A program made the position numbers and the translations under genes. From positions 2,166 to 66,165 of the IMG/VR virus record IMGVR_UViG_3300036985_003382: a stretch of 64,000 bases of DNA. One strand, given 5' to 3'. Origin of the DNA: a virus (taxonomy: Duplodnaviria; Caudoviricetes). Every line of letters begins with the position of its first letter. Position 1 is the stretch's first letter. Below the pieces are notes generated by a model. That model worked only from the letters and a program-made list of their open reading frames with translations, was not told the DNA's origin and did not search any database. Positions 2,858-50,600 of this stretch are shown in pieces.

Positions 2858-2920
2858 GAGGGTAGTAATATTTAGACCCTCCCGGTTACTATTTTTGGGA
2901 GGGTACTAAAATTTAGACCC
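2858..2920. repeat. two 22-bp imperfect direct repeats, 41-bp period
   Basis: GAGGGTAGTAATATTTAGACCC (2858-2879) and GAGGGTACTAAAATTTAGACCC (2899-2920). Confidence 0.7.
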
Positions 2921-3116
2921 CTAGTCTACGACGCCTTTGTGCCTCTTTATCGGCTTGGTGTGCCTCAACAATGAGGCTATCAAGCTTCTGGCAAAGGCTT
3001 TTGAGGTGATCCTCATTAGCTTTGAGTGTGTCCCCGGTACGAGACCAAGTCTTGTACATGGCACGAGATAACTCGTTAATTTGTGTCTGCGTTTCTAGAA
3101 TTTTGTTTGTGTTCAT
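2913..3116 (-). CDS. hypothetical coiled-coil protein
   Basis: 67-aa ORF immediately downstream of hammerhead 1. Confidence 0.6.
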   Translation of the reverse strand: MNTNKILETQTQINELSRAMYKTWSRTGDTLKANEDHLKSLCQKLDSLIVEAHQADKEAQRRRRLGV

Positions 3117-3127
3117 GGTTATTCCAT

Positions 3128-3195
3128 TAGACCTGACTCATCAGCGCAAGGTGGTCAATTCTTGACAGACTTCTCCGCAAGGGAGAAGTTTCGTC
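3128..3195 (-). ncRNA. hammerhead ribozyme, type II
   Basis: Minus strand GAC-GAAAC-UUCUCC/GGAGAA-GUC-stem I (UGUCAAG/CUUGCG)-CUGAUGA-GUC; complete core; loop-I GACC can pair with 3' tail GGUC. Confidence 0.88.
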
Positions 3196-3626
3196 TATAA
3201 GAGGCCCGTTGCCTTCATCGACTTCATCTGCTCGATCAATATTCTTGATTTGTATGTGCCGTACCACATCTCAAATCCACAGTTGTGAATCGACAGAACG
3301 CACTCACGTTTAAATGGTAAGAGTTTCTCTGGTTGGGTCACCTTGCATTTCTGCTTGGTGTATGCCTCAAACAGATTTCCATACTGCTCTGCTTCCTCTT
3401 CAGTGATGAACAGCATGAGGTTCTTCTTACCTACGTTGTCAAGAGTACACACATACTCTTCATCATCTGTGATGAGCAAGAATGGCCACTTAGGCCAGTC
3501 GAGCATCTCATCCTTGTCATACTCGCACTCCTCAGCAGCGGTCTCAATGGCGTCGATAACGTCATCGAGTTCAAGCTTTACTTGCTTTGCTATACGTCGT
3601 GCTGTCCACTCTTTAAATATGTTCAT
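3195..3626 (-). CDS. hypothetical protein
   Basis: 143-aa ORF with GGAGG RBS. Confidence 0.75.
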   Translation of the reverse strand: MNIFKEWTARRIAKQVKLELDDVIDAIETAAEECEYDKDEMLDWPKWPFLLITDDEEYVCTLDNVGKKNLMLFITEEEAEQYGNLFEAYTKQKCKVTQPEKLLPFKRECVLSIHNCGFEMWYGTYKSRILIEQMKSMKATGLL

Positions 3627-4084: not shown

Positions 4085-4110
4085 ACAAAGTGGGGGACTT
4101 GCGCCCCCCG
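4085..4110 (-). terminator. putative intrinsic terminator (GCAA tetraloop)
   Basis: GGGGGC-GCAA-GUCCCC hairpin followed by CUUUGUUU just after the stop of ORF 4117-4452. Confidence 0.55.
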
Positions 4111-4116
4111 TGTGCA

Positions 4117-4452
4117 TTAGTCGATGTTCTTTTCGATGTGGCGTCCAAGGTCACATCCCATTGCAGCAGCATTCACATGCGCTTCATCCAACTCTTCACT
4201 GATACGCTGTCGCTCTACTTCTGTGCGCATCATACTTGTATGTTCCATACCTGCAATAAACAGCGACGCAACGGCGATGATGACCAAGCTTGCAATAACT
4301 GACTGCAAGCCGATGATTCTCTGCCTTGCATTGCTCATCGTCTTAGCACCACGATTCAACGATGCAATAGCGTCATCAAGGTGTGCGTCAAGCACGTCAA
4401 TGTGTGAGCTGACTTCCGCTGGGAGGGAGTCGATTTGTTTCTGTGTAAGCAT
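4117..4452 (-). CDS. membrane-anchored coiled-coil protein
   Basis: Hydrophobic segment IIGLQSVIASLVIIAVASLFIAGM between helical regions. Confidence 0.7.
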   Translation of the reverse strand: MLTQKQIDSLPAEVSSHIDVLDAHLDDAIASLNRGAKTMSNARQRIIGLQSVIASLVIIAVASLFIAGMEHTSMMRTEVERQRISEELDEAHVNAAAMGCDLGRHIEKNID

Positions 4453-4498
4453 TTCTGCGTTTTCCTTTGTTGTTGACTGTCTACATATAGACCAAACC

Positions 4499-4553
4499 TG
4501 CGTTTCGGCATGACTGCCTCATCAGTTCACTATCGTCACATAGTGAAGACGCA
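4499..4553 (-). ncRNA. hammerhead ribozyme, type III
   Basis: Minus strand UGC-GUC-UUCACUAU/AUAGUGAA-CUGAUGA-GGCA/UGCC-GAAAC-GCA; perfect stems; loop I UGAC complementary to loop II GUCA. Confidence 0.93.
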
Positions 4554-4568
4554 TTATAGGTTGGGGGC

Positions 4569-4979
4569 CTAAGCCCCCTTCAACTTCATAACCCCCTTCC
4601 GAATCGCTGCACGGATGCAGTCCGATTCAAGGATGACATTGACACAGTCATCACTGTAACTGACGTCTTCGTAGCCTTCTGCGATGAGTTCAGCCATGCG
4701 GTCACCCATACCTTCGTAAGAACAGAAGTCATGTGCCTTGTACTGCACGTGCAGTTGTGTGCCTTCAACCTGACGCATCATGCGTACAGACTGTGTATTC
4801 ACCAACCAAGCAAAACGTTCGTCAGTTATTGGTTGCGTAAACTTGATGGTTTCCGATTTACCATCTTTCTTAGCCCATATGAACAGATGGGCGTAGATGC
4901 CATGGATGCAGTACGCATCTACATCAGGCAATTCAGCAGGGAACGGTGTCTGTACTGTGTTCAAGTCAAGTTGGCTCAT
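4569..4979 (-). CDS. hypothetical protein
   Basis: 136-aa ORF with A-rich leader and AAGG RBS. Confidence 0.7.
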   Translation of the reverse strand: MSQLDLNTVQTPFPAELPDVDAYCIHGIYAHLFIWAKKDGKSETIKFTQPITDERFAWLVNTQSVRMMRQVEGTQLHVQYKAHDFCSYEGMGDRMAELIAEGYEDVSYSDDCVNVILESDCIRAAIRKGVMKLKGA

Positions 4980-5015
4980 TGTGGTACCTTTTTTTGTTTT
5001 TTTGTTTTGAAAGTA

Positions 5016-5040
5016 GCACCCGGTATCTTACACCGGGTGC
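5016..5040 (-). terminator. 9-bp hairpin downstream of the first early gene
   Basis: GCACCCGGT-N7-ACCGGGTGC followed by UACUUU on the minus strand. Confidence 0.45.
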
Positions 5041-5051
5041 CAGCGGGGAGG

Positions 5052-5399
5052 TTATGCCAGCTCTGTGCCAGCATCCTCCGATGTGCCAACCTGCGTGGTT
5101 ACTGCATCCATTGCAGTCTTAGCAGATTGTGCATATTGAGCGGCGATAGCATCCGCCTTCGCTTCGGTAACGGCGATAGAACACTCCAACACCTTAGCGG
5201 TCAATGCTTCCAGCAGGGAATCAAGGTTCGCTTGGCTTGCAAGCGGTGAACGGCGTGCATTATTCGCATAGACCTTTGCAATGTTGCGGTAAGATTTCTG
5301 CACTGACTCTGCGCGTACACTATCGCTGTTCGTTTTACAAACAGTCAATAGCTCCAATAGCGCATTGACTTCAACGGCGGCGGCGGATAAAAACTTCAT
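5052..5399 (-). CDS. Ala-rich helical protein, first early gene (start re-assigned to MKFLSA)
   Basis: AAGGA RBS before ATG 5399; the ORF-track ATG at 5447 lies inside a ribozyme core. Confidence 0.65.
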   Translation of the reverse strand: MKFLSAAAVEVNALLELLTVCKTNSDSVRAESVQKSYRNIAKVYANNARRSPLASQANLDSLLEALTAKVLECSIAVTEAKADAIAAQYAQSAKTAMDAVTTQVGTSEDAGTELA

Positions 5400-5413
5400 G
5401 ATACTTTTCCTTT

Positions 5414-5486
5414 GGTAAAACAGTTTCGACAATAAGTTTGTCTTCATTCAGCACTGCAGTAACCAACTGCAGTAGACTGTTTCACC
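5414..5486 (-). ncRNA. hammerhead ribozyme type III, variant core
   Basis: Stem III GGUGAAACAGU/ACUGUUUUACC, GUC site, stem I UACUGCAGU/ACUGCAGUG, core CUGAAUGAA, stem II GACAA/UUGUC, GAAAC. Confidence 0.72.
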
Positions 5487-5489
5487 GTG

Positions 5490-5700
5490 CCACCCAGTAG
5501 GGGGCACACCATGTAAGTGGGTGGGGAATTTCAAACCAGTCACGTGCATGGGGGTGGGGGAGGGTAGACACCGGCATGGCAAGGGGGTGGGTGGGTACGA
5601 TCGGCCTAGTAGGGACTCCAAACCATATATTTCTTCTACTTCTTCTATATCTTCTCCGCACGGAGAAACTGTATCTCCCCGGAGAAATTAGGTTCCATAC
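5490..5700. other. non-coding strand-switch region with G-tracts (candidate control, packaging or terminus region)
   Basis: Divergence point between early (-) and late (+) arms; multiple G3-G5 runs, a pyrimidine tract and a TTCTCC/GGAGAA inverted repeat. Confidence 0.55.
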
Positions 5701-5738
5701 GGTTTTGCTACACTTTGTACCATGCTATACTCCCGATT

Positions 5739-6278
5739 ATGGCTAACCAATTTAAATCCGCAGATGAAGCAGCTGGCTACTTATTTGATGTAGCTATTCG
5801 CAAAGGTAAGGTAACGGCGAAACAAGAATATGAACGACTATACACAAGCCTTCCTCAAGATCAACAAATGGCTTTCTATGCGTCTGTAAATAAAATATTA
5901 AACCAAAAAAACCTCCGGGATAACGAGGGTTTAGGTGATGCTAAAGTACAGCGTTATCGTGAAAAAGCAGCCAAGAACATGTCGGTTGATTATGACACAG
6001 AGTTCGCCCCTAAGTCGGAGCCTAAAGCCCCCTCTAAGCCCACGCAAGCCCCGTCAGCAGCACCTAAACCTGTAGCCAAGGAAGTTACTAAGCCAGCACC
6101 TGAGCCAGTCGCTAAGACTAAAACAGAACCAATGGAAGACGAGAAGGGATTTCGTCCATATAGCAAGCAGTCTATGAGTGGCTTATTAAATATCAAAGCT
6201 GATAACCCTGCTCCTAATAGCCGTGCAGCTATTGGTGGATCAACACTTAAAATGCCAGCATTTGTACCCAAAAAGTAA
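5739..6278 (+). CDS. Pro/Lys/Ala-rich hypothetical protein, possible internal virion protein
   Basis: ATG 7 nt after TGCTATACT; PAPK-rich linker; SGLLNIK motif. Confidence 0.7.
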   Translation: MANQFKSADEAAGYLFDVAIRKGKVTAKQEYERLYTSLPQDQQMAFYASVNKILNQKNLRDNEGLGDAKVQRYREKAAKNMSVDYDTEFAPKSEPKAPSKPTQAPSAAPKPVAKEVTKPAPEPVAKTKTEPMEDEKGFRPYSKQSMSGLLNIKADNPAPNSRAAIGGSTLKMPAFVPKK

Positions 6279-6296
6279 GATATACTTACGGTACTT

Positions 6297-6368
6297 TCCT
6301 ACTTAGCTCAGCGGTAGAGCCTCCGGCTGTTAACCGGATGGTCGCTGGTTCGATCCCAGCAGTAGGAG
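6297..6368 (+). tRNA. tRNA-Asn(GTT)
   Basis: Cloverleaf: acceptor TCCTACT/AGTAGGA, anticodon arm TCCGG-CTGTTAA-CCGGA, T-loop TTCGATC. Confidence 0.95.
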
Positions 6369-7723: not shown

Positions 7724-7804
7724 CCCCAGTTGGTGAAAAGGTAGACACGACGGACTTAAAATCCGTTTCCGCAAGGAGTACAGGTTCGACTCCCGTACTG
7801 GGGA
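7724..7804 (+). tRNA. tRNA-Leu(TAA)
   Basis: Acceptor CCCCAGT/ACTGGGG, anticodon arm ACGGA-CTTAAAA-TCCGT, long variable arm with GCAA loop, TTCGACT. Confidence 0.92.
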
Positions 7805-7808
7805 CTTT

Positions 7809-7881
7809 GTCTGCGTAGCTCAGCGGATAGAGCAACTGCCTTCTAAGCAGTTGGCCACAGGTTCGAGTCCTGTCGTAGACG
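7809..7881 (+). tRNA. tRNA-Arg(TCT)
   Basis: Acceptor GTCTGCG/CGTAGAC, anticodon arm ACTGC-CTTCTAA-GCAGT, TTCGAGT. Confidence 0.95.
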
Positions 7882-11329: not shown

Positions 11330-14300
11330 ATGGCATCATTATTATCTAGCTTAGTTCGTGGAACTTCACCAGTCAGAAGACCAGAAGATGAAACAGTGAC
11401 GCCCGGAGGAGTTGCTCCTGCGCAACCTCCGGTGTCTATTCCACCTACTGCTCAACCAGTTCCTCAAGCAGCTCCACCATCAAGGGATTTAGCATCTGAG
11501 CCATTAATACCATCTATGGATGTTGGACCAGCCATGTTTGATCCATCAAAGTTAGATTTTGGTGCCTTATTTCAAAATGCTTTACTTAAGTCTCAGCCAT
11601 CTGCACCTACTACTACTGTTGATACAGCACAAGGACCACGCGTATTAGCTGGCAGTACGCCAGCACAAGATATTACACAGATTAAAAGATCTGATTTTAA
11701 AATCGAAGATATATCAGCAGATGCAAAAGGACTAGGAAAGTTTTTAACTGACTCTGGTGGGGGAACTTATAAATCTGGTTTAGGTTTGATTGATGATATG
11801 CAAACGTGGTTTAACAAGACTACGCGCACAGGCATGGGTGAAACACCTATGTCTCCACTTACAGCAGGTACAACCAGAGATGAATTATCTGGCGATAGCC
11901 CATTACGTAAGTTGGTTGGATATGCAGCTTCATTAAAGAACTCTGATGCGCCATACGCCAAGGAACAAGCTAAGGCATACTCTGATGCAATCCTTTGGCT
12001 GACTAAATCCATTGAGAACAACGATCAAAGAGCATATACAGCAGCAAAAGCAAACATTGACTCTCTTACTAAGCTAAACACAGAAGACTTTGCTAGATCT
12101 GGAACTAGATCCCAATTTGCTAGAAATGGTCAGTTAGTCAGTGCGTATGTAACAGGCAAAACCATACAACAAGCTGAGATAGATAAAGAAGCTGCATCTA
12201 CACCAGCAATACAACGTAAGGTTGTAACAAGTGCAGTTTTTGACTATGTGCAAGACAGATTTAAAGACTTAAGAACACAAGCTGAATCCGGAGGTGAAGA
12301 CGCACGGAGAGCACAGCGTACGTTAGATGTTTTTGGTCAATCATTTAAAGATATCTATGCACCAGTAACTGAGGGCACTCGTGATGCTAGATTAGCAGCA
12401 TTTGAATCATCACCACAAGGTCGAGCACTGATTACAGACGCGTTTGATAACTTGTCAGGTCTAGGATATTTTAATAGACCTAAGTTCAAAAGCATTGTAG
12501 ATAGATCAAAGGCGGGAGACATTAATCTTACGCCTGCTGATATCAAATCTATTATTGGTGAAACACAATATAAAAAACGACTCGGTTCTACTATTGATGT
12601 TGCTGATGATTTACCTGATGACGCAATCCAAGCCCTAAAACTTACACCAGATGACCCACAACGAATAAGCGGTGTCTATAGAGGTTTAACACCACAAGGC
12701 ATTGGGGCACTACAGGGCTTTGGGGATACTGATCAACCATTAGGTGAGCCACTAAGAGCAGGTCAGCCAGACGCTAGAGAATTTGATATTTCGCAGAACG
12801 TTCGTTCAACTGATACCTCTACTGGTATGACTATCACTCCAGTTACTGATAGCAAAATTAAAACTCGTGGTGAGTTAGCAGGAGCTATGGTTTCAGGCCT
12901 TGGGTTAAATACAGAACAAGCCGGAGAAATTGCTAAGCGTGTATTTACGGACACAACAGATCAACAAAGCTTTATAAACGCAGCTACCGTATCGTATGAC
13001 ATACAAGATGATGTCTTAACTAAAATTGCATCTGACGCTGGAACTATACGTGTTGCCAATACTGGTGGACAAACAACAGGAGGCCGCGCTAAAAGTACAT
13101 ATGCTTTAGTTAGCGATGTATTTGCCGCCGCTAATGATGTATTGCCACAACAAACATTTACAGAATCTTCATTAACACGACGTCAATGGGATTTGCGTAA
13201 ACGTGTATTAAATGACGCTGCTTCACAAGCTCAACAAATTGAAGGATCTGGTGCAGATGACGCAGTAAATGTAAAACGTTTCTATACAAGCGCAGATGGC
13301 AAACCAGATTTTACAAAACCAATTGTTCCAGATGCAAAAGATCAAGTAGGCAGGATTGCACTTCTTAAAGCAATGATTGATAAGGCCGCTGCTCCAGATG
13401 GCGCTGCATATAGACGTCAATTAGAGTTGCTGGCCAGAAGTGCTGTTGATGGACAACCATACACTGGCAGCATCAATATGAATCCAAGAGCGTTCCAAGG
13501 TCTTGTCAGTCTCTATGCATCACGTGTTGAAAGTGCTGCAGATGCTGATAAATCTGGGAAAACAGACAGTTGGTTCCAAAGCAAATTTGACATTAAGCCA
13601 AGTGAACTATCTAAGGTTGATAACCGAGATGCGTTCATGATGAAACTGGTAACAGCAAGCCCATCAGCGTTAAGGACATTTGCTAGTTCACTAGGAGCAG
13701 CGGATGCAACTGTTACACGTGGATTAATTCCAACTACTACTGCTGGTCAAGTAATAGATACCGCTGCTGGTATTCCGGGTGACATACAGGGTGGTGGGCG
13801 CAAGAATAGTAAAACCGAAAATCAAGCTCTAGGAAATATAGATCGAGCTACAAAAATTGTTGGCGGTGGATTTGAATCTGCTTTAGATGCAGTTTTAAAG
13901 TATAACGATGATCCTTCAACTGTAGATGTTCCACACACAAAAAAACAGTATGGCGAGGCGTTACTTGCCGTATTTGACAAAACATTAAATGAGTCAATGA
14001 AAGGCGTTTCATTTAAAGCTGGAGACAAAGCAAAGTTTAATAGTTTACGTGAAGCTATTCGCACTGAAATTATTAAACAAGCTGACACAGAATGGACTGC
14101 TGGAACTGTAACTAAAGACGATCTTAATGCAATCCTTAAACCGTTAGCTTCACAAATTCTAGGAGTTGACGCGCAAAAGACAAAAGCATTACCTGCGGTA
14201 GATAAACCTGAACCAAGTGTTGTCAAAGACCTTGAAGCTGGTAAGTCTGCTTATGACAAAGCCAAGGCTGAACTTGGCGGAGACCTTGGAACAAAAACAG

Positions 14301-17300
14301 ACATTGCAGCTGAACTTACATCTGACGAATCTTCTAAATATCCTGCGTATCAAGCATTTCTTGGAAAGTTAAAAGAAAGGCGTTTAGTCAATTATGGTCG
14401 TATTACCAAAGAAGTAGAAACACGTCAGTTAGGTATTACGACGGCTGGTGCAAAGTTAAATAGATTAAAGCAAGAAGGTAAGATCAATACACCTGAATTT
14501 AATACAGCATTAGATGCATATAACAAAGCACACGATGACTACAATGCTAAACGTTCAGAATTAGATACAGCGTTTGATTTAGTTAGTCAACCAATATCAC
14601 TTGATGATATGGACAAATTAATAAATACAAAAGAATTAGCAGTAATTGGAAGCGCTTCTAGGTCTGAAGCATTTACTAAACTAAGAGAAAAGATTTCAAA
14701 TGGTGGATGGGCATCATTAACACCAACAGAACGCGCAAGTTATTATCGTGAATCACTCACTAGATATTTTACTAGCGAACGCGGTAACGCAATCAGTCCT
14801 GTAACTCGTAGACGTTTGGCCTTTAGATCATTTATTGATTCTCCTCAAGGAGCAAACTGGGCACCTGTTAAATTAACAAGTGAACCGGGTGCTAATATAG
14901 AAAAATTAAAAGAGGACGCGTACACACCATCATATTTAACGGAAGTTACAAATGAAAAAGGTGATGTTATTGCACATAAGCTCAATCCTAATATTTCATT
15001 CAAATATGTACCAAAGTTAAATAAAGAAACAAACCGGATTGATTCATTAGATATTGTTGCTGAAGAAAGAATTACTGGCGGCGACAACAGACGAACAGTT
15101 ACAAAAAGACAGTTTGTTGTAACTGGCCGTGAAGTAGAAATTATGATGGCCCTTAATGACATGAAAGACATTAAGGATGAATTTGCTGCTATTGAAGCAA
15201 ATGTATTAAAACTTGATAGTGTTAAACAAAAAGTAACTGACACTAAACAAGCTGCAAAGTTTGGCTTAGTGCAAGATAAAGATAGTGGATATAAGTATCG
15301 AGACGGTGGATCATTTAGTCAGCTATTGCAAAGTTTAGTTGAATTTGAAAATGCTCCTAGTTTAACTAAAAACCAAGAGACGGTAAGAGCCGCATTATTG
15401 GCTGAAGGAGAAAAGTATTTAACGCAAATAGGTTCAAAAGATTCAATTAATAAGGTAGTAAACAAATACGCTAAACGTGCTGGCGCTGCAACTCGGATGA
15501 TTAAATTCCAAGACGTTTTGCGCGAACGTCTTGCTGATCGAATTGATGCCTTTAGTAAAAACGGGAGAACACCAAATTTAGCTGATTTACAACAAGACAT
15601 AAATGATTATTTTGATGGCGGTAAGATTGACGAAGTCGATAATGACGCCAGACGTACTGAAATGGCAGCTTTGCAAAAGACAGATGTTGCTGGAATTTTA
15701 CGTGCAGATAAATACGTAGAGAAAACATTTGGAACAAACGGACCATTACAAATATCAGCAGCTCAAAACACTAAGGGTAATCGAGCAATAACCATGCCCG
15801 TTGCAAAAGCTTATGATGAGTTATTGCAACTGAGAAACAAAATTGATGGTGGTGATCAATCTCCAGAAACAGAGTTTAAGTTTTTACAACTAAGAGATAA
15901 ATTTGTAGAGCACACTGGAAAATCAATTAGTGATCTCGATAGAGCATTTACTATCAGTAACGTTGAATCTGCAAATAATTTAGTTACTACTGGCGGTAAT
16001 AAACAACGAGCATCTGGTGAAAACTTTGGTATTAGATTTGGCGAATACGCTCAAAGATATATACCAATTAAAACACCACGTCCGGGATTTGAAACTGAAG
16101 CAGATTTTAAAAAGTTTAACAAAAAGATGACGGTGAATGAAAAGAAGCGCGTTGATGCAGAAAAGGAACTAGGTAAGACTCTTGGGTTTGACACCACTAA
16201 CTACAGTACACGTAGTAGTGTATGGACTGACTTGAACACAAAATGGAAGAACTCAACACCTAATCAATGGGATTCATGGATTTCTGGTGTACCTGAAGAA
16301 GTTAGAAATAGAGTTCTTGAACATTATACACGTTGGTCAACAATGGGTGGAGAGGGTAAAAATGATGCACTTGGAAATCAAGGGCAAGCAGGATGGAGGG
16401 CTATTGATTGGGCAGTTGACGGGAATGGCAATGTAACGCCTGATGCAAAAAAAGTACTATCTTCAATTACTCAATGGGCTTCAGTAAGTAGAGTCAAGTT
16501 TGATAGCAATGATCTTAAGGATTTATCAACAGACATTTTACGGATGTATACACTTGAAAACAGTAACACCAAAGTAACTAGAGAGGATTTAGCAAAGTTT
16601 AAAAGCCCATTGGTAAGAGGTGTATTGCGACAGCGAATTAATCCCGGACCCGGCATAACAATTGGTGATCCGTTTACTCAATTTATTAATGCTATTGATC
16701 CAACTCCACTGCAAGGTGCTGCGCAAATTGTTGCACAAAAACAGAAAACGGCACTGGCATTACCACAAGCGCGACGCGTAGTAAATCAAAAACTTAAAAC
16801 AGATGCTGATTTTAGGTCTGCTGTTAATTCTGTTTTACGAGCAGAAGGTGAACGTTATGTAATTACCGATCAAGGAAAAATTGCAAAACGTTCTTATTCC
16901 GCTAAAGATCCAGTAGAACCAAAGGGGTTATCTGGTGATGATTTATTCAAATGGAGAGTTGAAAATAAACAACTAACGTATTTAGATTATTTACGTTACT
17001 CTGCTGATGTGCATGACACGGCTACTCAACCAAGAGACTTTTTGATTGATGGTAAAACTGTAACGGTTCCAGTTAGAGATGTAAAAAATGGACCTGAAGG
17101 CATGTTGAAATTCTTACAGAAACGTATGTCACGTGCTGAACCTAAGTCTGTCACAAACTTTGAGGCCCCTAAGTCTGTTGTCGCATTACCACCAAATGTT
17201 GATCCATTGCGACCGGGTAGACAGATAGGATTCCGGTATCAGGGTGCAGATTACTTTATTGGTGCAAAAGAATACGCATCGCTTGTGCAAGATATAAATG

Positions 17301-17593
17301 ACGGAAAGATCAGCACAAAAGATGTAAGGGGTCTTGTTACATCATTAGTTTCTAAACTTAGATATAGAACATATGGTGCAGACTTAAAGAAACCATTATT
17401 ACTTGGAGTAAAAGCAGTCGGTGAAGGTGAAGCTGACGTAAAGAAAATTCCAAAAGAAGTTCAAGAAAAAATGATTGAAGAAGCAAAGAAAGAAGGCTTC
17501 AATATCAAAAAGAGTATTAAGGGTGGAATACCGGGATTCTTTAGTGCGATGATTGCAGCTATTATTGCAGAGTGGAATAGCAAGGAAGAGTAA
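11330..17593 (+). CDS. very large (2087 aa) hypothetical protein, probable internal virion protein
   Basis: Uninterrupted ORF; Pro-rich N-terminus, helical composition, hydrophobic C-terminal helix; no enzyme motif recognised. Confidence 0.75.
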   Translation: MASLLSSLVRGTSPVRRPEDETVTPGGVAPAQPPVSIPPTAQPVPQAAPPSRDLASEPLIPSMDVGPAMFDPSKLDFGALFQNALLKSQPSAPTTTVDTAQGPRVLAGSTPAQDITQIKRSDFKIEDISADAKGLGKFLTDSGGGTYKSGLGLIDDMQTWFNKTTRTGMGETPMSPLTAGTTRDELSGDSPLRKLVGYAASLKNSDAPYAKEQAKAYSDAILWLTKSIENNDQRAYTAAKANIDSLTKLNTEDFARSGTRSQFARNGQLVSAYVTGKTIQQAEIDKEAASTPAIQRKVVTSAVFDYVQDRFKDLRTQAESGGEDARRAQRTLDVFGQSFKDIYAPVTEGTRDARLAAFESSPQGRALITDAFDNLSGLGYFNRPKFKSIVDRSKAGDINLTPADIKSIIGETQYKKRLGSTIDVADDLPDDAIQALKLTPDDPQRISGVYRGLTPQGIGALQGFGDTDQPLGEPLRAGQPDAREFDISQNVRSTDTSTGMTITPVTDSKIKTRGELAGAMVSGLGLNTEQAGEIAKRVFTDTTDQQSFINAATVSYDIQDDVLTKIASDAGTIRVANTGGQTTGGRAKSTYALVSDVFAAANDVLPQQTFTESSLTRRQWDLRKRVLNDAASQAQQIEGSGADDAVNVKRFYTSADGKPDFTKPIVPDAKDQVGRIALLKAMIDKAAAPDGAAYRRQLELLARSAVDGQPYTGSINMNPRAFQGLVSLYASRVESAADADKSGKTDSWFQSKFDIKPSELSKVDNRDAFMMKLVTASPSALRTFASSLGAADATVTRGLIPTTTAGQVIDTAAGIPGDIQGGGRKNSKTENQALGNIDRATKIVGGGFESALDAVLKYNDDPSTVDVPHTKKQYGEALLAVFDKTLNESMKGVSFKAGDKAKFNSLREAIRTEIIKQADTEWTAGTVTKDDLNAILKPLASQILGVDAQKTKALPAVDKPEPSVVKDLEAGKSAYDKAKAELGGDLGTKTDIAAELTSDESSKYPAYQAFLGKLKERRLVNYGRITKEVETRQLGITTAGAKLNRLKQEGKINTPEFNTALDAYNKAHDDYNAKRSELDTAFDLVSQPISLDDMDKLINTKELAVIGSASRSEAFTKLREKISNGGWASLTPTERASYYRESLTRYFTSERGNAISPVTRRRLAFRSFIDSPQGANWAPVKLTSEPGANIEKLKEDAYTPSYLTEVTNEKGDVIAHKLNPNISFKYVPKLNKETNRIDSLDIVAEERITGGDNRRTVTKRQFVVTGREVEIMMALNDMKDIKDEFAAIEANVLKLDSVKQKVTDTKQAAKFGLVQDKDSGYKYRDGGSFSQLLQSLVEFENAPSLTKNQETVRAALLAEGEKYLTQIGSKDSINKVVNKYAKRAGAATRMIKFQDVLRERLADRIDAFSKNGRTPNLADLQQDINDYFDGGKIDEVDNDARRTEMAALQKTDVAGILRADKYVEKTFGTNGPLQISAAQNTKGNRAITMPVAKAYDELLQLRNKIDGGDQSPETEFKFLQLRDKFVEHTGKSISDLDRAFTISNVESANNLVTTGGNKQRASGENFGIRFGEYAQRYIPIKTPRPGFETEADFKKFNKKMTVNEKKRVDAEKELGKTLGFDTTNYSTRSSVWTDLNTKWKNSTPNQWDSWISGVPEEVRNRVLEHYTRWSTMGGEGKNDALGNQGQAGWRAIDWAVDGNGNVTPDAKKVLSSITQWASVSRVKFDSNDLKDLSTDILRMYTLENSNTKVTREDLAKFKSPLVRGVLRQRINPGPGITIGDPFTQFINAIDPTPLQGAAQIVAQKQKTALALPQARRVVNQKLKTDADFRSAVNSVLRAEGERYVITDQGKIAKRSYSAKDPVEPKGLSGDDLFKWRVENKQLTYLDYLRYSADVHDTATQPRDFLIDGKTVTVPVRDVKNGPEGMLKFLQKRMSRAEPKSVTNFEAPKSVVALPPNVDPLRPGRQIGFRYQGADYFIGAKEYASLVQDINDGKISTKDVRGLVTSLVSKLRYRTYGADLKKPLLLGVKAVGEGEADVKKIPKEVQEKMIEEAKKEGFNIKKSIKGGIPGFFSAMIAAIIAEWNSKEE

Positions 17594-41614: not shown

Positions 41615-44600
41615 ATGCCAGATCAACGCGACAAATCCAGATCCGATGCTTATTGGAAAAAAAGATATACCGAAGCAGGTGTTGTTCCAAGTCCTCAAGG
41701 TGTGACCGTAACACGGCCTACTAATAGGCTAGGATTTGAAAATACTTATCCAAAAAGTCAAATTAATGAGTTTGTACGTACTCAATATAATCCGTTAGCT
41801 GATGCTATACGAGCAGGTAATCCAGCTGTAGTTTCATCCGCCACTCTTGACTTTGCTAATAATGCATATCGCGAAGGCCTTATTGATGAGTCTCAACGCA
41901 ATTACATAAAGTCAAGTATTGCGAATATGCGTCAGCAGATGTCGCGTACTCCTGTTGCTTCAGCAGATGGACAGCAAATTCCATTTGGGCGGCTTGGTAG
42001 AGTTCAAGGACCATCTGGAACATTTGGTGCAGTCAACGATCAGTTAATGCATTCTGATCTAATTCAATACAATGCAGATGGTTCTTTTAGTTATAATCCA
42101 GCAGGTACTGCAGCAGATATTAACTCGACAACTGGTGCTAATGCTAGACGTCAACAAGACATTATGGCTGGCGCTACACCAAAAAGTGTTGGTGCTGAAA
42201 CATGGTCTACATTAGGCGCACAAGCAGTTGGCACTGCAGCTGCTTTGCCATATGGTCTAGCGTTAAACTTTCCCGGTTTTAATCCACAAGCTAACGATGA
42301 AACATTTGGTGGCAGGGTCGTGTCTTCTGCTCAAGGTACGTTGGCTGGATTTGCAGCTAAACCACTAGACATGATGTCTGGTATTACTCAGGGTACGTCT
42401 TATCTTGGCGCAAGATTAGCAGGGCGTTCTCCAGAAGATGCAAATCAAATAGCATCAAGTATAAAAGAACAAACTCCTTATTACAATACAAGTGATCAAA
42501 TGCTTGCACCGGGCATGGAAAACCAACAATTTCAATTAGGCTCTGCTGTAGGTGGTGAGCTTTTTACTGCAGTACCAGCACTGTACAGTAGCCTTGGATT
42601 ACTTAATGCATCAGGAGCACTTGGTGCTCGGATGCTTGCCAGTGCTGGCACTAAAGCTTCTAACGTTGGTAGATATATTGGCATTGGGTCAGCTGTTGTA
42701 GCCCCTACTGCTGTTGCTGGTTTTAGAGACCAGTTAACTGGTGGGAAACCCGGTGTTAGGGAAGACCTTGTAGCGGGCGCAGAATCCATCATGGATCCTA
42801 TTAGGTCTACTATGCAACGAGGTATTACGGAATCTGGTGCAATTGGTCAAGCAAACTTTGACCCTCAAGGTAAAACTCAAGCAGCGTTACAACAAGCTGG
42901 CATTCTAGCAATGGCAAGTGGTGGTTCATTACAGATGTGGAAAGACGTAAAAAATCAATCCTCTATTGGCATTCAAGCAATGCGAGAAAGCATTAAGACA
43001 AACCGCAATCCATTTACGGCACTTGGAACAGGCATTTCAGCTTCTATTGAAGGAGAGATTGGTAAGGCTGCAGCCGCTGATCTTGGCTTTGCTTTGACTC
43101 AGCCATTAAGTGACATTGGGCGTATGGTATACGCCAACACACGTATTGATAAATCCGTGCCAATAGACACTCCAACTGCTGGTGATGTATTTAAGTCCAT
43201 GATGCTTGGCCTTGTTGCGTCACGTCCGGGTAAAAGTGCCCAATTCATTTTCCGTGGTAATCCTCTACAGAGCCTTGAACCTAAGACTATGGCATTGGCT
43301 CATGCTACTGATATTGTTCGTAAAGGTGGACCAGAATTACAAGCACTAGTAAAGCATTACAACGAAAAATATAACGACTTCATTGAACCAAATGACGTCG
43401 ATATTAGACGTCTTGCAACAGTAATGGCTAATGATAACGTAGCAAACTTACAAAGGTTAGCTAAATTTCAAGAGATTGAAGACGGTGCTCCAGTCACTAA
43501 AACAGCTGCGGAATATATTGATGCATACATAAATAATCCTGACGCATTCCCAGAATCACTACGTACTAAATATGAGACATTACTTACGAGCATGCGTCCA
43601 AACAAGGCCAAGATAGACCTTGATGATGGCAACCCATTAAATACAATTGAGCTGGCTGATGAGTATAAGACTGATCTAGTTACTAGGCGTAGGCGAATTA
43701 AGGAATATACCGATGCGCTATTGCCAGTTTATACAGAGCAGATGAAAAACTTAGGTCAAAAGCCAGCAGAAATTAGTGACAAGGTTCGTTATTACGGCAT
43801 TGATACTAAAGATGGACGCATGCTTTTATTTGACAGGGATTTTAGGAATGCAACATTAGTTCCAAAACATGAAGCTGAAGACATTGCAATGCTTCAACCA
43901 AAGTATTCCCCAATTGAAAACGTTTATACACCAGAAGAAAAATCTGACCGCCAACCTTTATATGAAGCCCTTGATAATATTCGAGGCAAGGTGTTTCGCA
44001 TAGGTTCGCAAGACGGAGTTGTTACACATTTTGACGCACTGGGTGTGTTCGTTAAAGTCGAGGGTGGTGAAAGTAAATTTTTAAGCCGTAGGGAGATAGA
44101 GCAACTATTAGAAACATCTACTTCTGATGGTTTAACGGAAGAACAAATTGATAATTTAACTCAACTACAAGAGTTAACAAACATTATTCATAGAACACAA
44201 AGTCTTGTTGAACCAACAAGACAATCTCTTTATGGTGAGCAATTTAAAGATAGTAGATTTAAAACACCTTTATTAAATACTGGGCGATCGTTACGTGTAA
44301 AGCCAGATGCAAATTTAGTAGATACATTTAGAGGTACTGATATATTCCAGTCCAGCGATGGATCTTATGCAATTTTTACTAAAGGTGAAATCCCTTCTAC
44401 GCTTTCACCAGAATTTAAAAATCCCGGCGAAAGACAAATTGATCCAACTAATTCAGTGTGGACAGTAAGTAAAGATACTGCTAGTGGACCTATAGATGTT
44501 GACCTTGTGTTATCTGGGCGCCAACAAGAAGCTATTGCTGCGTTACCACTAGGCAGTACTGCTGAAAAAGGTATTGAGAAAGCCTACGATTATGCAGACC

Positions 44601-47600
44601 CATTTACTCATGACCTTGGAGATATTGTTTCTGTTACACAAAAAGATGGCACTGAAGTTAAATATGTTCTTGTTGAAAAGTTTGATGACTCCGCAATAGG
44701 TGTACGAATAGATGCACCTGAGTCAACTCCTGCAATTATTTTTGAAAGTCCTGCATTAAAAGTAGAAAAGATTGACAGGGGATTTTTGCAGACTAAATTT
44801 GATTCGGCTAGTCGTGTAGTTGGCGCGGATTTGACATCTATTCGCCCAGAAAATAATGAGATTACGACAATCTTGCAGCATGCAATGTACTTGTCTAGTC
44901 GTGATGAATCTGCTGATGGTCCAGCTATTGTTTACGATGAAATTACTAATGCCTTACCTGAAGAGTTATCCGGCGTTATTCATAGTGTTCTAACAAGAGA
45001 TGCAGAGACATTAGGCGTTGAACGTAATGTAGCAGCTTCATTGCGTGAGTGGTTATTAAAAAATAGAGAACAAGCTGCTGATTTAGAATCGTATATTCAA
45101 GGAGCAATGGCAACTGAGATTACACTAAGTGCTCGTGACATTAGTGTGCAGAAATTAGCAAGACTACAACGCATTCTTGACAATGGAGAATTAAATAGTC
45201 TTATTGATCAATTGGTTGGAGTATATGATTCTGACGCAGAAACATCTGCTGACGTCATGTACTCTTCTAGCCCTAGAAGAGTAGGAACAGCAAGAGGAGA
45301 GTTTCTGACTCTTTTAGGTGTAGCAAACAAAATAAACAGACTACTAATGCGCGACAAGCATATTAGTGATGCAACTATTGAGCGTGTAGTAAACAAGGAC
45401 CTTGGTAAAGATACACGCTTTGAAGGTAAGTTAGATATTGCATTACAAACAATTAAGAAGTTAGCAAAGTTATCTAGCCAAATAAACCCTATTGCTTTAG
45501 GAGTAGTTCTAAATAAAGGTTCGTTATGGCAGATGGAACAATTAGCCTTGTTACCACAAGACATACAGGTTCTGTCTGCATTAGTTCCATATGAAGATAT
45601 GCCGTCTGTTTATACGGATTCATTTGGAGAATGGTTTGCGTCAAAAGAAAAATACATTGCAGCTGTTACACGCGCAAAAGATTTATATTCTAATGCTGTA
45701 GCTAATGGCCCTGATGCCATTGCAAATTTAAAACGTGCGATGTATGACGCTCGCCTTGGATTCTTTTATGAGATGGCGGCACGAGCACCAGAAATTGCAT
45801 CAAGAGTAGACATGGATGTAGATGGTGGACGATCATTAGACACTATTAGTTCTAACCGTCAACGGTCTGCTGATGCAGTAAATGATGTTATTAAACGATT
45901 AGCCACTGAGAAGTTAGCTATTATTGCTAAGCAACTTCGAGATAATGAAACAGCACCAGATATGGCTGTTCCTGTTCCAATGAATGAGTTAGTTGCTGTA
46001 ACTAAAATTGCGGATAAAGATGGCTCTATTGATTTTTCAATCATGACAGACACTCAAGCTTTAGATGCAATTGTCGGATCAGAAGCAGGTGTTGATGCAT
46101 TAATTTCAATTGGTCGTAGATTAGCCAATGAACTTGATAAAGAAGACACTATGACTGGTGTTTCTGTTTATAGTGAGGAAGGTTTTAATGTAGGTTTAGG
46201 CACACTGCAAGAAGCAAAAGCACAACAAGAAAACAAATCTTTACTAGCAGCTGTAATTAGAAATTGGAACAATTTAACTCCTGAAGCTAAATCTGCAATT
46301 GGCTATATCAACATGCCATTAATCCAGTTGAGTGAGTTAATTAAAGCTATTGATAACGCTAACGATGATGCATTACGTGAGTCATTAATCTTTGGAATTA
46401 TGAATGCTGTTGGTACAGATGGTGCATCTAACACAGGATTTGAATTAAGTAAATTATTTAAAAGTCTGGACTCTGCAACAAAGTTTAGTAATTTTGCTGC
46501 AGATGTAATGGCCAAGAAAAATATAGCTGATTCTAGTGGCGGAGAAAGCGCAGAGACTAGACGCCGAACTTCTATACGTGGCGCAATGGATCTTTTACTA
46601 AAGTTACGATCTGAAATAGTTAACCCTGACGGAACTAGCATATTGGAAACTGCTGCTCTTTATTACAAATCCGCAGGAATAAAACCATCGGATTTATACT
46701 CGTTTATGTCTATGGTTTCACAAGAAGTTACTACATCTATGTTAGATGTTATTTCTAAAAACAAAGACACCAATCGAATGGAAGTCATTGGAGTTATTAG
46801 TAGTCAAGCAGCTGAAATGGGACAGGTTGTTAGAGTTGCTGGATCTGTAGAAGGTGATCAATCAACTAAACAAGCGGTATTAGAATTGCTTCATACAGTT
46901 ACAACTGATGGGCTTCAATATTTAGGTGTTACGTTTGACCCAAGAACACGTGTTCTTATAAGTGATGCCGTTCATCGAGTTATTAGTCAAGGAAAATTAA
47001 ATACTGCAGGATTGAACTCGGTTGAACAAGCACGTGCAATGATGGAAGAAGCTCGTACCTTGTCTGCACAGATAGCCGATTTCGTACTAGGTGATAAGTC
47101 ATTAGCCGAGCAACCAAATGCTGCGTATACGCCAGCTGCTGAGTCCACAGCAGAAAAGGTAGTTAATGCAATTGATGGCAACACATTCCATCAACGGTCT
47201 GGATCTAACAAAGATGCTGCAGCATATTTGCTTCTTGCTGGTAACAGGGCTGGACTTGAAAAGATTATTTTAGCAACGTTATTTGATGCTGCAAGTAAGG
47301 ATCAAATTCAGTTTGCTTCAATTGATGAAGCAATTGTTTCAGTAACTCTTGGTCCAGAGTTTGCTCGCAAATATTTTGCACGTGTTAAACAAGCACGATT
47401 TGTTAATGACAAAATTATTTTTGGCACAAGTGGAATTTTAAGAGCCGCAGTATTGCCGGGTGGTGCCGAAACTTACACTTTGCCTGACGCAACAAAACAT
47501 GATTTGATTGAAGGCCAAGCGCTTTTAAATCACTTTATGCAAAAAGCGTATCAGTTACTATCACCACGTGACAAAGGTAGATTTACTGAGGCCGTAACTT

Positions 47601-50600
47601 CATACATTGCTAAGAAACGAGCTGAGTCTAACTCACAAGAATTTGAATTTGAAATCAAAGACTTGATGACTATAGCTGAAGGTTTTAATGGAACAAAAAA
47701 CCAAATGTTTAAGGCATCAAATGATGCAAGTACATTAACGTATGGTTTACCAATCAATAAAACATTTACTACTGCGTATAAGATTAAATCTTTAATTTCA
47801 TCAATCCGTGGTTCTGCCTCAGAGACTCCGTTAAATAAAGACACTGATTACAGTGTAATGACTCAGTTTAGTAACATTGGAACTCGGCGTAGTTTTGTTG
47901 AAGCGTTTGACAATGTATCGATTTACGAACGAATTGATACTGCTGATTTAACTGAATCTGACGCTGATCAATTAGCTGCGTTTTATGGAATTGCAGCTAA
48001 AGATGAATCTTATAGTCCAAAACAAGCAACAGAGTTTAATGAATTAGCTAAGTATTATCGAGCAGCTAAAAACTCAGCTGTAATTAAATCTGGAGATAAG
48101 AATGTAACACGTGTGTCGAATCGATTTTCTGATGCTAGAGCAGTAGCGGCTAACCTTGCAAAGGTATATGACACTTATGCAAATAGAATGAGTACTCGTA
48201 AGATTACATCTGACATTGACAATAACTTTGACTTAGATCAATACAAAGCGTTAGTTGCGTTTCTTGGGCTTGATCAAGAGGCATATAACGCAATTATTGC
48301 ACCAGAAGCAGTATCAAGTGTTGGTCAACTTTTAAATAAAGACGGAACAATTCTTTCTAAAGACCAGCAGAAAATGCTTATTTCGTTACGTGCTGCTCAA
48401 TTAAAACAAGACTTTTATAATCAAAACCATAAGTTGTTTTTTGCTCACGAGGCAGAGATTGCAAAACTTGGTTATGATCGATCTGAAATAGCAGGACAAG
48501 ATACTGAAGCAAGTATTACAAGAATTAAACAAGGTGAGGCATACTCGTCTATTTTGTTTATGGCATCAACTACTAAAAACTTTGACAAAACATCTCTTGC
48601 AATGGCGCACGAAGTATCACATCAGTTATTTTATTCGTTACCAGACAAGAGTCAACTTGACTGGATTAACGCAATCACACGACCGTTAAACACAAATGCC
48701 AGTGATGACAAAATTAATCCTGAGACTAAATTGTTTTATGATTATATGAAAGAACAAAACTCACGTTACAACAATCTTAGTGCATCTAATAAACGAACAT
48801 TTCGTTTGCAATCAATACAAGAATTTGCTGCAACTAAAGGTGGGTTTACAGATCAACAAGTTAGAACAGCAAAACTTATTTGGGGAGAATCATCTGCTAC
48901 TAGTTTAGTTAACTTTATTTTGACCAATGGTGTAATTGCAGACGTTACAAATCCAAAGGTATATGTTGGCGAAGACATTACTAGTGCAATGATTAATTTG
49001 CAAGCAGTACTTAGGCCAATGGCTGAACGGCTTACATCAACACATGGGGCATATTTAACAGTTGACGGAAAACCTACTAACGTTTTCTATTACAAACCGG
49101 GTTCAGTCGTTTATCAGTCACAATCTAAACAAGGTATTAATCGTGCATTTTACGCAATGAAACACGGATCTATTGTTTCATTTGTAAACAACAAGGCTAA
49201 AAAAACAAGTAGTGCTGTAAAAGTCATTGATGTTCACGATGTCATTATGTCCAGTAAGTCTGGTAATAAGATTAACGTTAATGAAGCGTTGACATCGTTA
49301 AAAGAATTTATACCTTCCGACGTTGCAGTAGAACTTCTTGACAAAATTAAGGCATTGCAAGAAAAAGGAATTATCTATGGTGATGATTACTATTTAAGTG
49401 TCCACGGAGCCGATGGTTACACCAAGCAAGACGATGGGACTACATCACCTGAAGGTTATAACGTAGTCGGTAAAGTTGTTGGCATGGCACGGGAAAAAGT
49501 AACTGTTACAGAAGCAATATATGGATTAGGTTCATTTACTAATAAAGGTAAGTCATGGATGACAGTGACTAAAGGTCCGGGCGTTTCTGCTAATTCTCCG
49601 TGGTACACGCTTAAAACATATATGCATAATCAGCGTGGTGCTAAATTTGTACAAAACGGTACAAAAGGTGATTACGGATATGTAGTTGAAAGCTCTGGTA
49701 CATTACGGCTTAATGCAGTTAGACGTAAGGATAATGCAGTTGATTTAGCTGAAAACGGATTTAATCGCAAGACATCTTTAAAGTATGTTGTTGGTCATGA
49801 TTTGATTGCTGAACAAGAAGGCCTGTACATGGTTGGCACTTCTGATTCTGCAAGCCCACAGTTTATGAGTGTTCTTTATCAGATGTTGAGCCAGATTGAT
49901 AAAAGAATAATTGATATTGCTGGGCAGAGAACATACGACTACGAAACACGTATGAATGCAGCTCTTGCAGATGGCATGCGTAGTGGAAGTTTTGATAAGT
50001 GGGATCAAGTTGTTTCTATTCCATTAGCGCTTGCATCAGAGAAGAATATTAAAAATATAATCTCTGGCACACCACCCGCAGAATTAGCTGCCGTTAGAAA
50101 CACTGGCACACATCCGTACGTCAGAAATCAAGCACACGCTAAAAACGTATTAAAATGGGCTAACACTTTACCTGCAGAACAACGGTCTGTAGTGATTCCA
50201 TTAATAAAGCAAATCGTAGAGCAACACAGTTATTTAGTTGCTACTAAATTAGGTGGCAGTGAGGGAAGTGTTGGAGATAGGCTTTTAGGAGTTTTTAACA
50301 AAAGCACAGACTGGTATTCATTTTTACCATTTGCAACTAAAGACATATCTGATCGAGGTATTACTCGTGCTATTGCATCTTTGTTTGAACAATCATTTAC
50401 TTCATTTGAAGATGCTCAATTGTTTGTATCAGAGATGACAAAGGCTAGGCTTTATTTATCTGAAGATCCTACTGGTACAAATTTGACGTCATATTTTGCA
50501 CGTGGTACAGACGGTGCACCAACGCGTTCATTTGTTGTGGAAATTGATGGCGTTAAAGTAGATGTTTCTACATTTATCGATCAAGCATTTGGGTTAAATA

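Follow-up and report, generated by a model that had tools for sequence, protein, structure and literature searches.

[quoted passage not shown] That the element is a structured RNA descended from hammerheads and under selection is close to certain, and that it still cleaves usefully in vivo is likely, if considerably less secure. The stretch of DNA analyzed (64,000 nucleotides, referred to as the window) corresponds to bases 2166 to 66165 of a phage genome of 66,165 bp recorded in IMG/VR. Its phage genes include those for a terminase, a portal protein, a major head protein, a DnaB-like helicase, and a dUTPase, and the labels of the sequencing runs indicate a freshwater habitat. A search among GenBank phages gave nothing close to the record, only tRNA matches.

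Read on the minus strand, the element folds into the three helices of a hammerhead (Table 1). Both the minimum free energy (MFE) structure and the centroid obtained with RNAfold for positions 5410 to 5490 are the exact three-way junction, at -29.5 kcal/mol, an energy reached by none of 200 dinucleotide shuffles (z = -4.97). The helices follow the order III (5' strand), cleavage site, I, core, II, GAAA, and III (3' strand), with helix III open, in the MFE structure and in the descriptor match alike. Stem III consists of 10 bp plus the A15.1-U16.1 pair (A5424-U5476), pair 15.2-16.2 is C5423-G5477, and the core-adjacent pairs of helices I and III are free of mispairs. The cleavage triplet GUC is found at 5477 to 5475 (G5477 U5476 C5475), with C5475 unpaired in the MFE structure. 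All seven consensus residues are present in order in the core strand (CUGAAUGAA), which is 9 nt long versus the contiguous 7-nt C3 U4 G5 A6 N7 G8 A9, one base being inserted after A6 and one after A9. An earlier note on this DNA had described three intact stems of about 11, 9, and 5 bp, GUC and GAAA in their correct places, a core strand expanded by 2 nt in a hammerhead-type junction, and a predicted cut between 5475 and 5474, and the fold agrees with it on each of these points. A register with AUGAAGA as the core was rejected by inspection, as two extra bases remain before the GAAA.

TABLE 1 Leader hammerhead, its parts, and neighboring features (window positions; parts of the minus-strand element are given 5' to 3')
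Feature	Position	Strand	Remarks
Leader hammerhead, whole element	5414..5486	-	Type III layout, 9-nt core strand
Stem III, 5' strand GGUGAAACAG	5486-5477	-	Followed by U16.1 (5476) and C17 (5475)
Stem I UACUGCAGU / ACUGCAGUG, loop UGGUU	5474-5452	-	9 bp, U.G wobble at 1.1-2.1 (U5474-G5452)
Core strand CUGAAUGAA	5451-5443	-	C3 U4 G5 A6 +A U7 G8 A9 +A
Stem II GACAA/UUGUC, loop ACUUA	5442-5428	-	5 bp; closing pair G10.1-C11.1 = G5442-C5428
G12 A13 A14 A15.1 (GAAA)	5427-5424	-	Directly before the 3' strand of stem III
Stem III, 3' strand CUGUUUUACC	5423-5414	-	Sequence and fold
Ribosome binding site (RBS) AAAGGAAAAG and first ORF (115 aa)	5052..5413	-	RBS 5413-5404, ATG 5399-5397
GC-rich hairpin abutting the 5' side of the hammerhead	5487..5507	-	MFE of 5395-5530; place conserved in relatives (alignment)
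Conserved intergenic block between divergent gene clusters	5508..5714	.	BLAST, 71-78% identity in four of the five closest relatives searched
Second hammerhead, type III, consensus core CUGAUGA	4497..4555	-	Between ORF 4569-4979 and ORF 4117-4452
Third hammerhead, type II, consensus core CUGAUGA	3127..3196	-	Between ORF 3195-3626 and ORF 2913-3116

Natural hammerheads need a contact between loops I and II at low Mg2+. In the leader, 3 to 4 bp could form between GGU(U) and (A)ACU, a match equaled by 1,411 and 737 of 2,000 loop shuffles. Across the leaders of related phages, the loops are complementary as GGU:ACC in one group and, swapped, as ACC:GGU in the other, per copy no better than in shuffled loops.

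The hammerhead is flanked on one side by a block of small open reading frames (ORFs) on the minus strand, running from 5399 down, and on the other by a plus-strand block that begins at 5715; 14 nt separate its 3' end from the ATG of the first leftward ORF. The 115-aa product of this ORF had no PHROG match and belongs to no known family, and neither the search for relatives nor tblastn against the relatives' loci gave a match to it. On the other side, BLAST matches of the intergenic block to the relatives end at 5484 to 5481, i.e., at the 5' edge of the hammerhead, and the block is presumed to hold promoters or regulatory sites. Considering both strands, the intergenic sequence from 5487 to 5714 is more conserved (71 to 78% nucleotide identity) than the flanking proteins (approximately 42 to 67% amino acid identity), and it contains invariant motifs, an inverted repeat around TTCTCCG...GGAGAA, and G-runs on the plus strand. 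These features probably represent divergent promoters or regulatory sites. A scan of the minus strand between 5486 and 5715 found no sigma-70-like promoter, and inspection of the sequence following the hammerhead found no U-tract. The earlier note had put the element at the head of an early transcript. Its location 14 nt before the first leftward ORF and behind the conserved block stands, whereas a place at the head of an early transcript is suggested by the gene layout; in that case, the early mRNA would have its first 5' end at the cut.

Behind the leader, the first gene behaves as a swappable cassette: unrelated genes take its place in relatives and in contigs from other samples. It is bounded by the conserved intergenic block and the hammerhead on one side and by the next conserved gene on the other. 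The N-termini of the genes behind the leader differ among the relatives (loci L092 to L095, L105, and L106 are examples of the cassette), and contigs of runs X3 and X10 replace the first gene with other sequence, the joints being 5041 to 5432 and 5042 to 5484, respectively.

To search the window, we used a descriptor of the type III hammerhead that allowed zero, one, or two single-base insertions anywhere in CUGANGA, on both strands. With two insertions and stems of at least 6, 4, and 5 bp, 0.01 matches are expected per 64 kb (100 dinucleotide shuffles of the window), and the leader stems measure 9, 5, and 10 bp against this threshold; at loose stem thresholds (4, 3, and 3 bp), the expectation is 0.16 chance matches per 64-kb window. 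The two-insertion descriptor found the leader site and one weak site (44627 to 44681), which was taken for a chance match. In Rfam, no hammerhead family matched positions 5350 to 5560 even at an E value of ≤10 (211-base search), and the leader falls below the gathering threshold of every hammerhead model, just as the earlier note had predicted for standard motif searches. Compared with the type III model (RF00008, clan CL00010), the leader has the same junction order, the GUC, the core and GAAA residues, and the G10.1-C11.1 and A15.1-U16.1 pairs, but its core strand has 9 nt instead of 7, and it receives no score from this model at that E value. Over the records of 19 relatives, RF00008 gave a single weak match (25.2 bits). 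Since the consensus copy at 4497 to 4555 also remains under its threshold and most of the relatives' copies are missed, the Rfam models are insensitive to these phage hammerheads, and current hammerhead models thus overlook whole lineages of them.

Sequencing error in the core, a concern raised in the earlier note, was examined with contigs from other studies. One from run X2 spans 5010 to 5577 with no gaps and 24 substitutions, a comparison that covers the length of the core and not the identity of its letters, and one from run X3, a third study, spans 5432 to 5800, with all 14 gap letters outside 5432 to 5476. As the 9-nt core length is found without gaps in both, the two extra bases are not an assembly indel error. 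The single RNA run among those compared, X24, gave a contig that spans the region of the second hammerhead (4441 to 4578).

Relatives of the phage were reached via the portal protein (80 related IMG/VR loci) and also via a divergent 187-aa gene; searches with the 115-aa first ORF and a 2087-aa protein found none. Among the five closest full-length relatives, four matched in a DNA search (portal identity of 85 to 86%), and each of the four has its own hammerhead-shaped element just behind the conserved intergenic block. A covariance model built from these four relatives, with the window excluded (R1), has its best match in the whole window at 5419 to 5481 on the minus strand (22 bits, E value of 3.2e-4). 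Additional leader copies were found via the 187-aa gene (L105 and the metagenome copy L106) and via a conserved 19-nt upstream motif (L114, the same as L120, as well as L119 and L122). The nine distinct leaders are those of the window, five viral-contig copies (L092 to L095 and L105), the metagenome copy L106, L114, and L119. In the seven leaders examined for placement, the hammerhead lies behind the same conserved intergenic block and 1 to 25 nt ahead of an AGGA-type RBS. Strong matches were obtained in 4 of 42 relatives' records with model R1, and model R2 matched in 4 of 42 (and in 4 of the 15 records with a completeness of 90% or more); no R1 or R2 hammerhead was found in the more distant relatives (portal identity of ≤74%), many of whose records are fragments. 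Given that hammerheads occur only in the four closest of these 42 records, they are a trait of one subclade.

Across the nine leaders, the core strand varies within narrow limits: CUGAAUGAA in the window, CCGACGAA in L092, CCGACGAU in L093 and L094, CCGAUGAA in L105, UUGAUAAU in L095, CUGACGAU in L106 and L119, and UUGAUAA, a plain 7-nt U3-A8 core, in L114. Residues G5, A6, A9, G12 to A14, and C17 and the pairs A15.1-U16.1 and G10.1-C11.1 are invariant in all nine. An extra base follows A9 in eight of the nine, U4 is replaced by C in four, and C3-G8 is replaced by U3-A8 in two (L095 and L114), whose stem-loop II is nearly identical to that of the window. The earlier note had asked after homologs conserving the insertions. 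They keep the catalytic residues and, in seven of the eight other leaders, the extra base after A9, but the insertion after A6 is found in none of these eight and so is not itself selected across the family.

The stems have changed far more than the core. From one leader group to another, the sequences of stems I and III show no relation and yet still pair, and the second pair of stem II covaries between A-U and G-C. In the window, stems I and III reach 9 and 11 bp, versus 8 to 10 and 4 to 8 bp in the relatives. We assessed covariation in an alignment of 11 sequences (7 leaders and the second hammerheads of 4 relatives), fitted to the structure, which favors pairing: 95.1% of the cells pair, 12 of 17 pairs show double changes, and the covariation score is 0.815, compared with 0.22 in shuffles (none of 500 reached it), with slid registers pairing in 25 to 40% of the cells. 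Parsing the leaders by hand agreed with this alignment, the stems of L095 and L119 being bulged. The retention of unpaired catalytic residues amid turnover all around them points to selection on the ribozyme core and not just on a hairpin structure. The earlier note had also considered a decaying copy; the perfect pairing of all three stems, together with the compensatory changes within the family, makes this unlikely.

Taken singly, the departures from the consensus have all been seen elsewhere. The (+) hammerhead of chrysanthemum chlorotic mottle viroid reportedly has an extra base between A9 and helix II. For the hammerheads of Penelope-like elements, Cervera & De la Pena (2014, PMC4209133) describe as "usual" an extra base where helix II begins at its 5' end. 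The window and seven of the eight other leaders share this feature, an unpaired base that separates A9 from G10.1, although these precedents are viroid and eukaryotic retroelement RNAs and not phage mRNA leaders. As for the insertion near position 7, which the earlier note had thought unusual, it is not a novelty: a natural insertion directly after A6 ("A6a"), as in the window, is already described in the main text of Perreault et al. (2011, PMC3088659), where its low activity is explained by the lost A6-N7 phosphate contact with U4. U3-A8 covariation and U4C are given there as natural hammerhead variants too; the U3-A8 change in L095 and L114 is the one expected from an active hammerhead fold. 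As far as that text goes, each of these changes occurs alone, whereas in the window A6a is accompanied by a further base inserted after A9, a combination that was not found in the main-text literature searched.

The position of the element also has a parallel. According to the same main text, the hammerhead of haloviruses HF1 and HF2 has a 2-nt core insertion. It precedes by 13 nt the start codon of the ORF that comes first in an early polycistronic transcript, whose 5' end was mapped no more than 3 nt away from the ribozyme's cut site (PMC3088659). Here too a 2-nt core insertion is found upstream of the first ORF, at 14 nt. However, the insertion of HF1/HF2, as described there, adjoins C3 and stem I (positions 2a and 2b), while those of the window follow A6 and A9, and the host in that case is an extremely halophilic archaeon with salt-dependent ribozyme activity, compared to a freshwater phage here. 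Each single core feature and the leader position therefore have precedent, and the element is not a new RNA class.

Two further hammerheads lie downstream on the same strand, with two and three ORFs, respectively, in the intervals between the three, and both have consensus cores (Table 1). The second scores 41.8 bits with RF00008 (gathering score of 48.5; E values of 4.2e-8 in the local search and 1.1e-5 over the whole window) and 42.3 bits with model R2, from which it was excluded, and its core is conserved at 93 to 96% in four relatives. A GC hairpin (4561 to 4578) directly precedes it. A 5-bp pseudoknot is possible between its loops I and II (GUGAC/GUCAU) and was equaled by 52 of 2,000 loop shuffles; a loop match of this length is found in this copy only, as opposed to the leaders, whose loops are no better than shuffled ones. 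The third scores 27.2 bits with RF02276 (gathering score of 37; E value of 9.6e-4, local search), and its orthologs in three of the four relatives' loci score 31.6 to 37.5 bits, one of them over the gathering score, with stem I differing from that of the window by compensatory changes. This copy overlaps the stop codon of ORF 3195-3626 and has a helix II of 3 bp and a bulged stem I. The first 2,400 bases of the record, which extend beyond the window, gave no further Rfam match at an E value of ≤0.1. The relatives have an additional type III hammerhead, which follows the leader and precedes the consensus copy (for example, L092, 659 to 718, minus strand; L093, 2416 to 2475, plus strand; L106, 1242 to 1301, minus strand), with the core CUGACGA followed by an extra G and a 3-bp helix II; the window is without this copy. 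The possibility that the RNA between the first and second hammerheads is ligated into a circle was considered and rejected, since their helix III strands are not complementary and no composite hammerhead would result.

Hammerheads in prophages are often clustered, flank genes, and cleave both in vitro and in E. coli, as stated in the main text of PMC3088659. The present set resembles those clusters, as described there, in its mixed types (III, III, and II), its location on one strand, and its flanking of varying genes or short blocks. Unlike them, its first copy is a leader with a nonconsensus core that is conserved as such across a phage clade, and such a lineage of nonconsensus leader hammerheads beside consensus ones was not found in the main-text literature searched. 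The biological role of bacterial and phage hammerheads was still regarded as open in the main text of a 2017 review (PMC6155905).

For the attenuated ribozyme that we favor, the following course can be proposed. The leader RNA would cut itself between C5475 and U5474, probably more slowly than a consensus hammerhead, because of the A6 insertion and the extra A after A9 in the core. Cleavage would remove the promoter-proximal part of the leader with its conserved hairpin (5487 to 5507) and leave an mRNA that has a 5'-hydroxyl end, begins with stems I and II, and carries the RBS 1 to 10 nt behind the ribozyme. Against this course speak the low activity reported for the A6 insertion, which is combined here with a second one, the lack of the A6 insertion in the eight other leaders, the failure of the Rfam models to match, and a loop complementarity no better than that of shuffled loops; the 11 bp of stem III might also retain the 5' product once the RNA is cleaved. 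The leader would be the first of three hammerheads on the transcript of the leftward small-ORF operon; the downstream ones would split the polycistronic RNA into gene-sized pieces. At least the first two are preceded by a GC-rich hairpin, which would serve as a cap for the fragment lying upstream. Synthetic insulators of the RiboJ type are engineered from a satellite RNA ribozyme, and in them cleavage, not the promoter, defines the 5' end of the mRNA. The arrangement proposed here, a hammerhead between promoter and RBS, may be compared with them by analogy, the likeness being one of function only. Release of the RBS by cleavage was rejected as a role: the MFE structure of 5395 to 5530 pairs UUCC (5528 to 5525) with GGAA (5410 to 5407), but the predicted unpaired probability of the RBS is unchanged by cleavage in five of the six leaders folded (0.38 versus 0.39 in the window).

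It is also conceivable, although we think it rather unlikely, that the element derives from a hammerhead but is crippled, the double insertion having abolished useful cleavage, and that it remains as a stable structure of the 5' UTR, where it protects the 5' end or insulates the RBS, or has simply not yet decayed. The low activity of the natural A6 insertion would fit this, as would the report, in the main text of the same paper (Perreault et al. 2011, PMC3088659), that some predicted ribozymes with disruptive mutations are inactive. The restriction of the A6 insertion to one of nine leaders, the unusually long stems I and III of the window (9 and 11 bp), which would suit a purely structural role, and the lack of an Rfam match for the leader point the same way. 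However, the other catalytic residues are intact, and a structural element need not retain the unpaired residues G5, A6, G8, A9, and GAAA; the leader stems are without mismatch, and the same core length in the contigs of two other studies indicates a spread of the variant. A ribozyme of low in vitro activity can, moreover, suffice in vivo, as described for a viroid U4C variant that is weak in vitro and sufficient in vivo (main text of Perreault et al. 2011, PMC3088659).

A different alternative grants cleavage and makes its rate the point: the leader cores would have been selected to be slow or to depend on ions, temperature, or a phage or host protein and would thus time or gate early expression. 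Such a conditional ribozyme is, in our opinion, quite improbable, and we give only slightly more credit to the broader proposal that the leader hammerhead is kept "detuned" in this freshwater phage clade, as a slow or conditional cutter that acts as a kinetic timer or switch for early mRNA stability or translation and not as a site of constitutive processing. The frequency of deviations is what speaks for selected slowness, since the extra base after A9 is found in eight of nine leaders, with U4C in four and A6a in one, so that in five of the nine the extra base is joined by another deviation, either U4C or A6a, and the hammerhead at 4497 to 4555, its orthologs, and the type II copies keep consensus cores. 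Perreault et al. (2011), in the main text of PMC3088659, also proposed that slower phage variants may turn active under particular conditions, which is shown there for salt-dependent variants. On the other hand, an extra base after A9 is present in the relatives' internal hammerhead as well (the G following CUGACGA) and is therefore not leader specific, L114 has a plain 7-nt core, no ligand- or protein-binding module is visible, and the predicted accessibility of the RBS is the same before and after cleavage in five of the six leaders folded. If detuning were true, no slower setting would yet have been observed in nature than the doubly expanded core of the window.

Finally, a chance look-alike or an unrelated structure such as a terminator or DNA-level hairpins is hardly credible: relaxed descriptors do give 0.16 matches per 64 kb and did pick up the weak site at 44627 to 44681, but only 0.01 are expected per window at the observed stem quality, homologs with covariation occupy the same genomic place, two other hammerheads lie on the same strand, and no U-tract follows the element.

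The nine homologous leaders at one genomic position, with the conserved regulatory block on one side and the first RBS on the other, form a natural series that samples A6a, the extra base after A9, U4C, and U3-A8. Standing beside consensus hammerheads in the same operon, this series offers a test of how much speed a ribozyme that processes phage mRNA needs and of whether the cores are tuned or tolerated.

Several other features of the window deserve mention. Inside the hammerhead operon, behind ORF 4117-4452, there is a terminator-like GC hairpin with a U-rich tail (4092 to 4109, minus strand). Two giant ORFs on the plus strand, 41615-54463 (4282 aa) and 11330-17593 (2087 aa), had no PHROG match at an E value of ≤1e-5, and the pattern search in IMG/VR found no close relative of the 2087-aa protein. 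The plus-strand block includes three tRNA genes (6297 to 6368, 7724 to 7804, and 7809 to 7881), the first of which resembles the tRNA-Asn of cyanophages and Pseudomonas phages.
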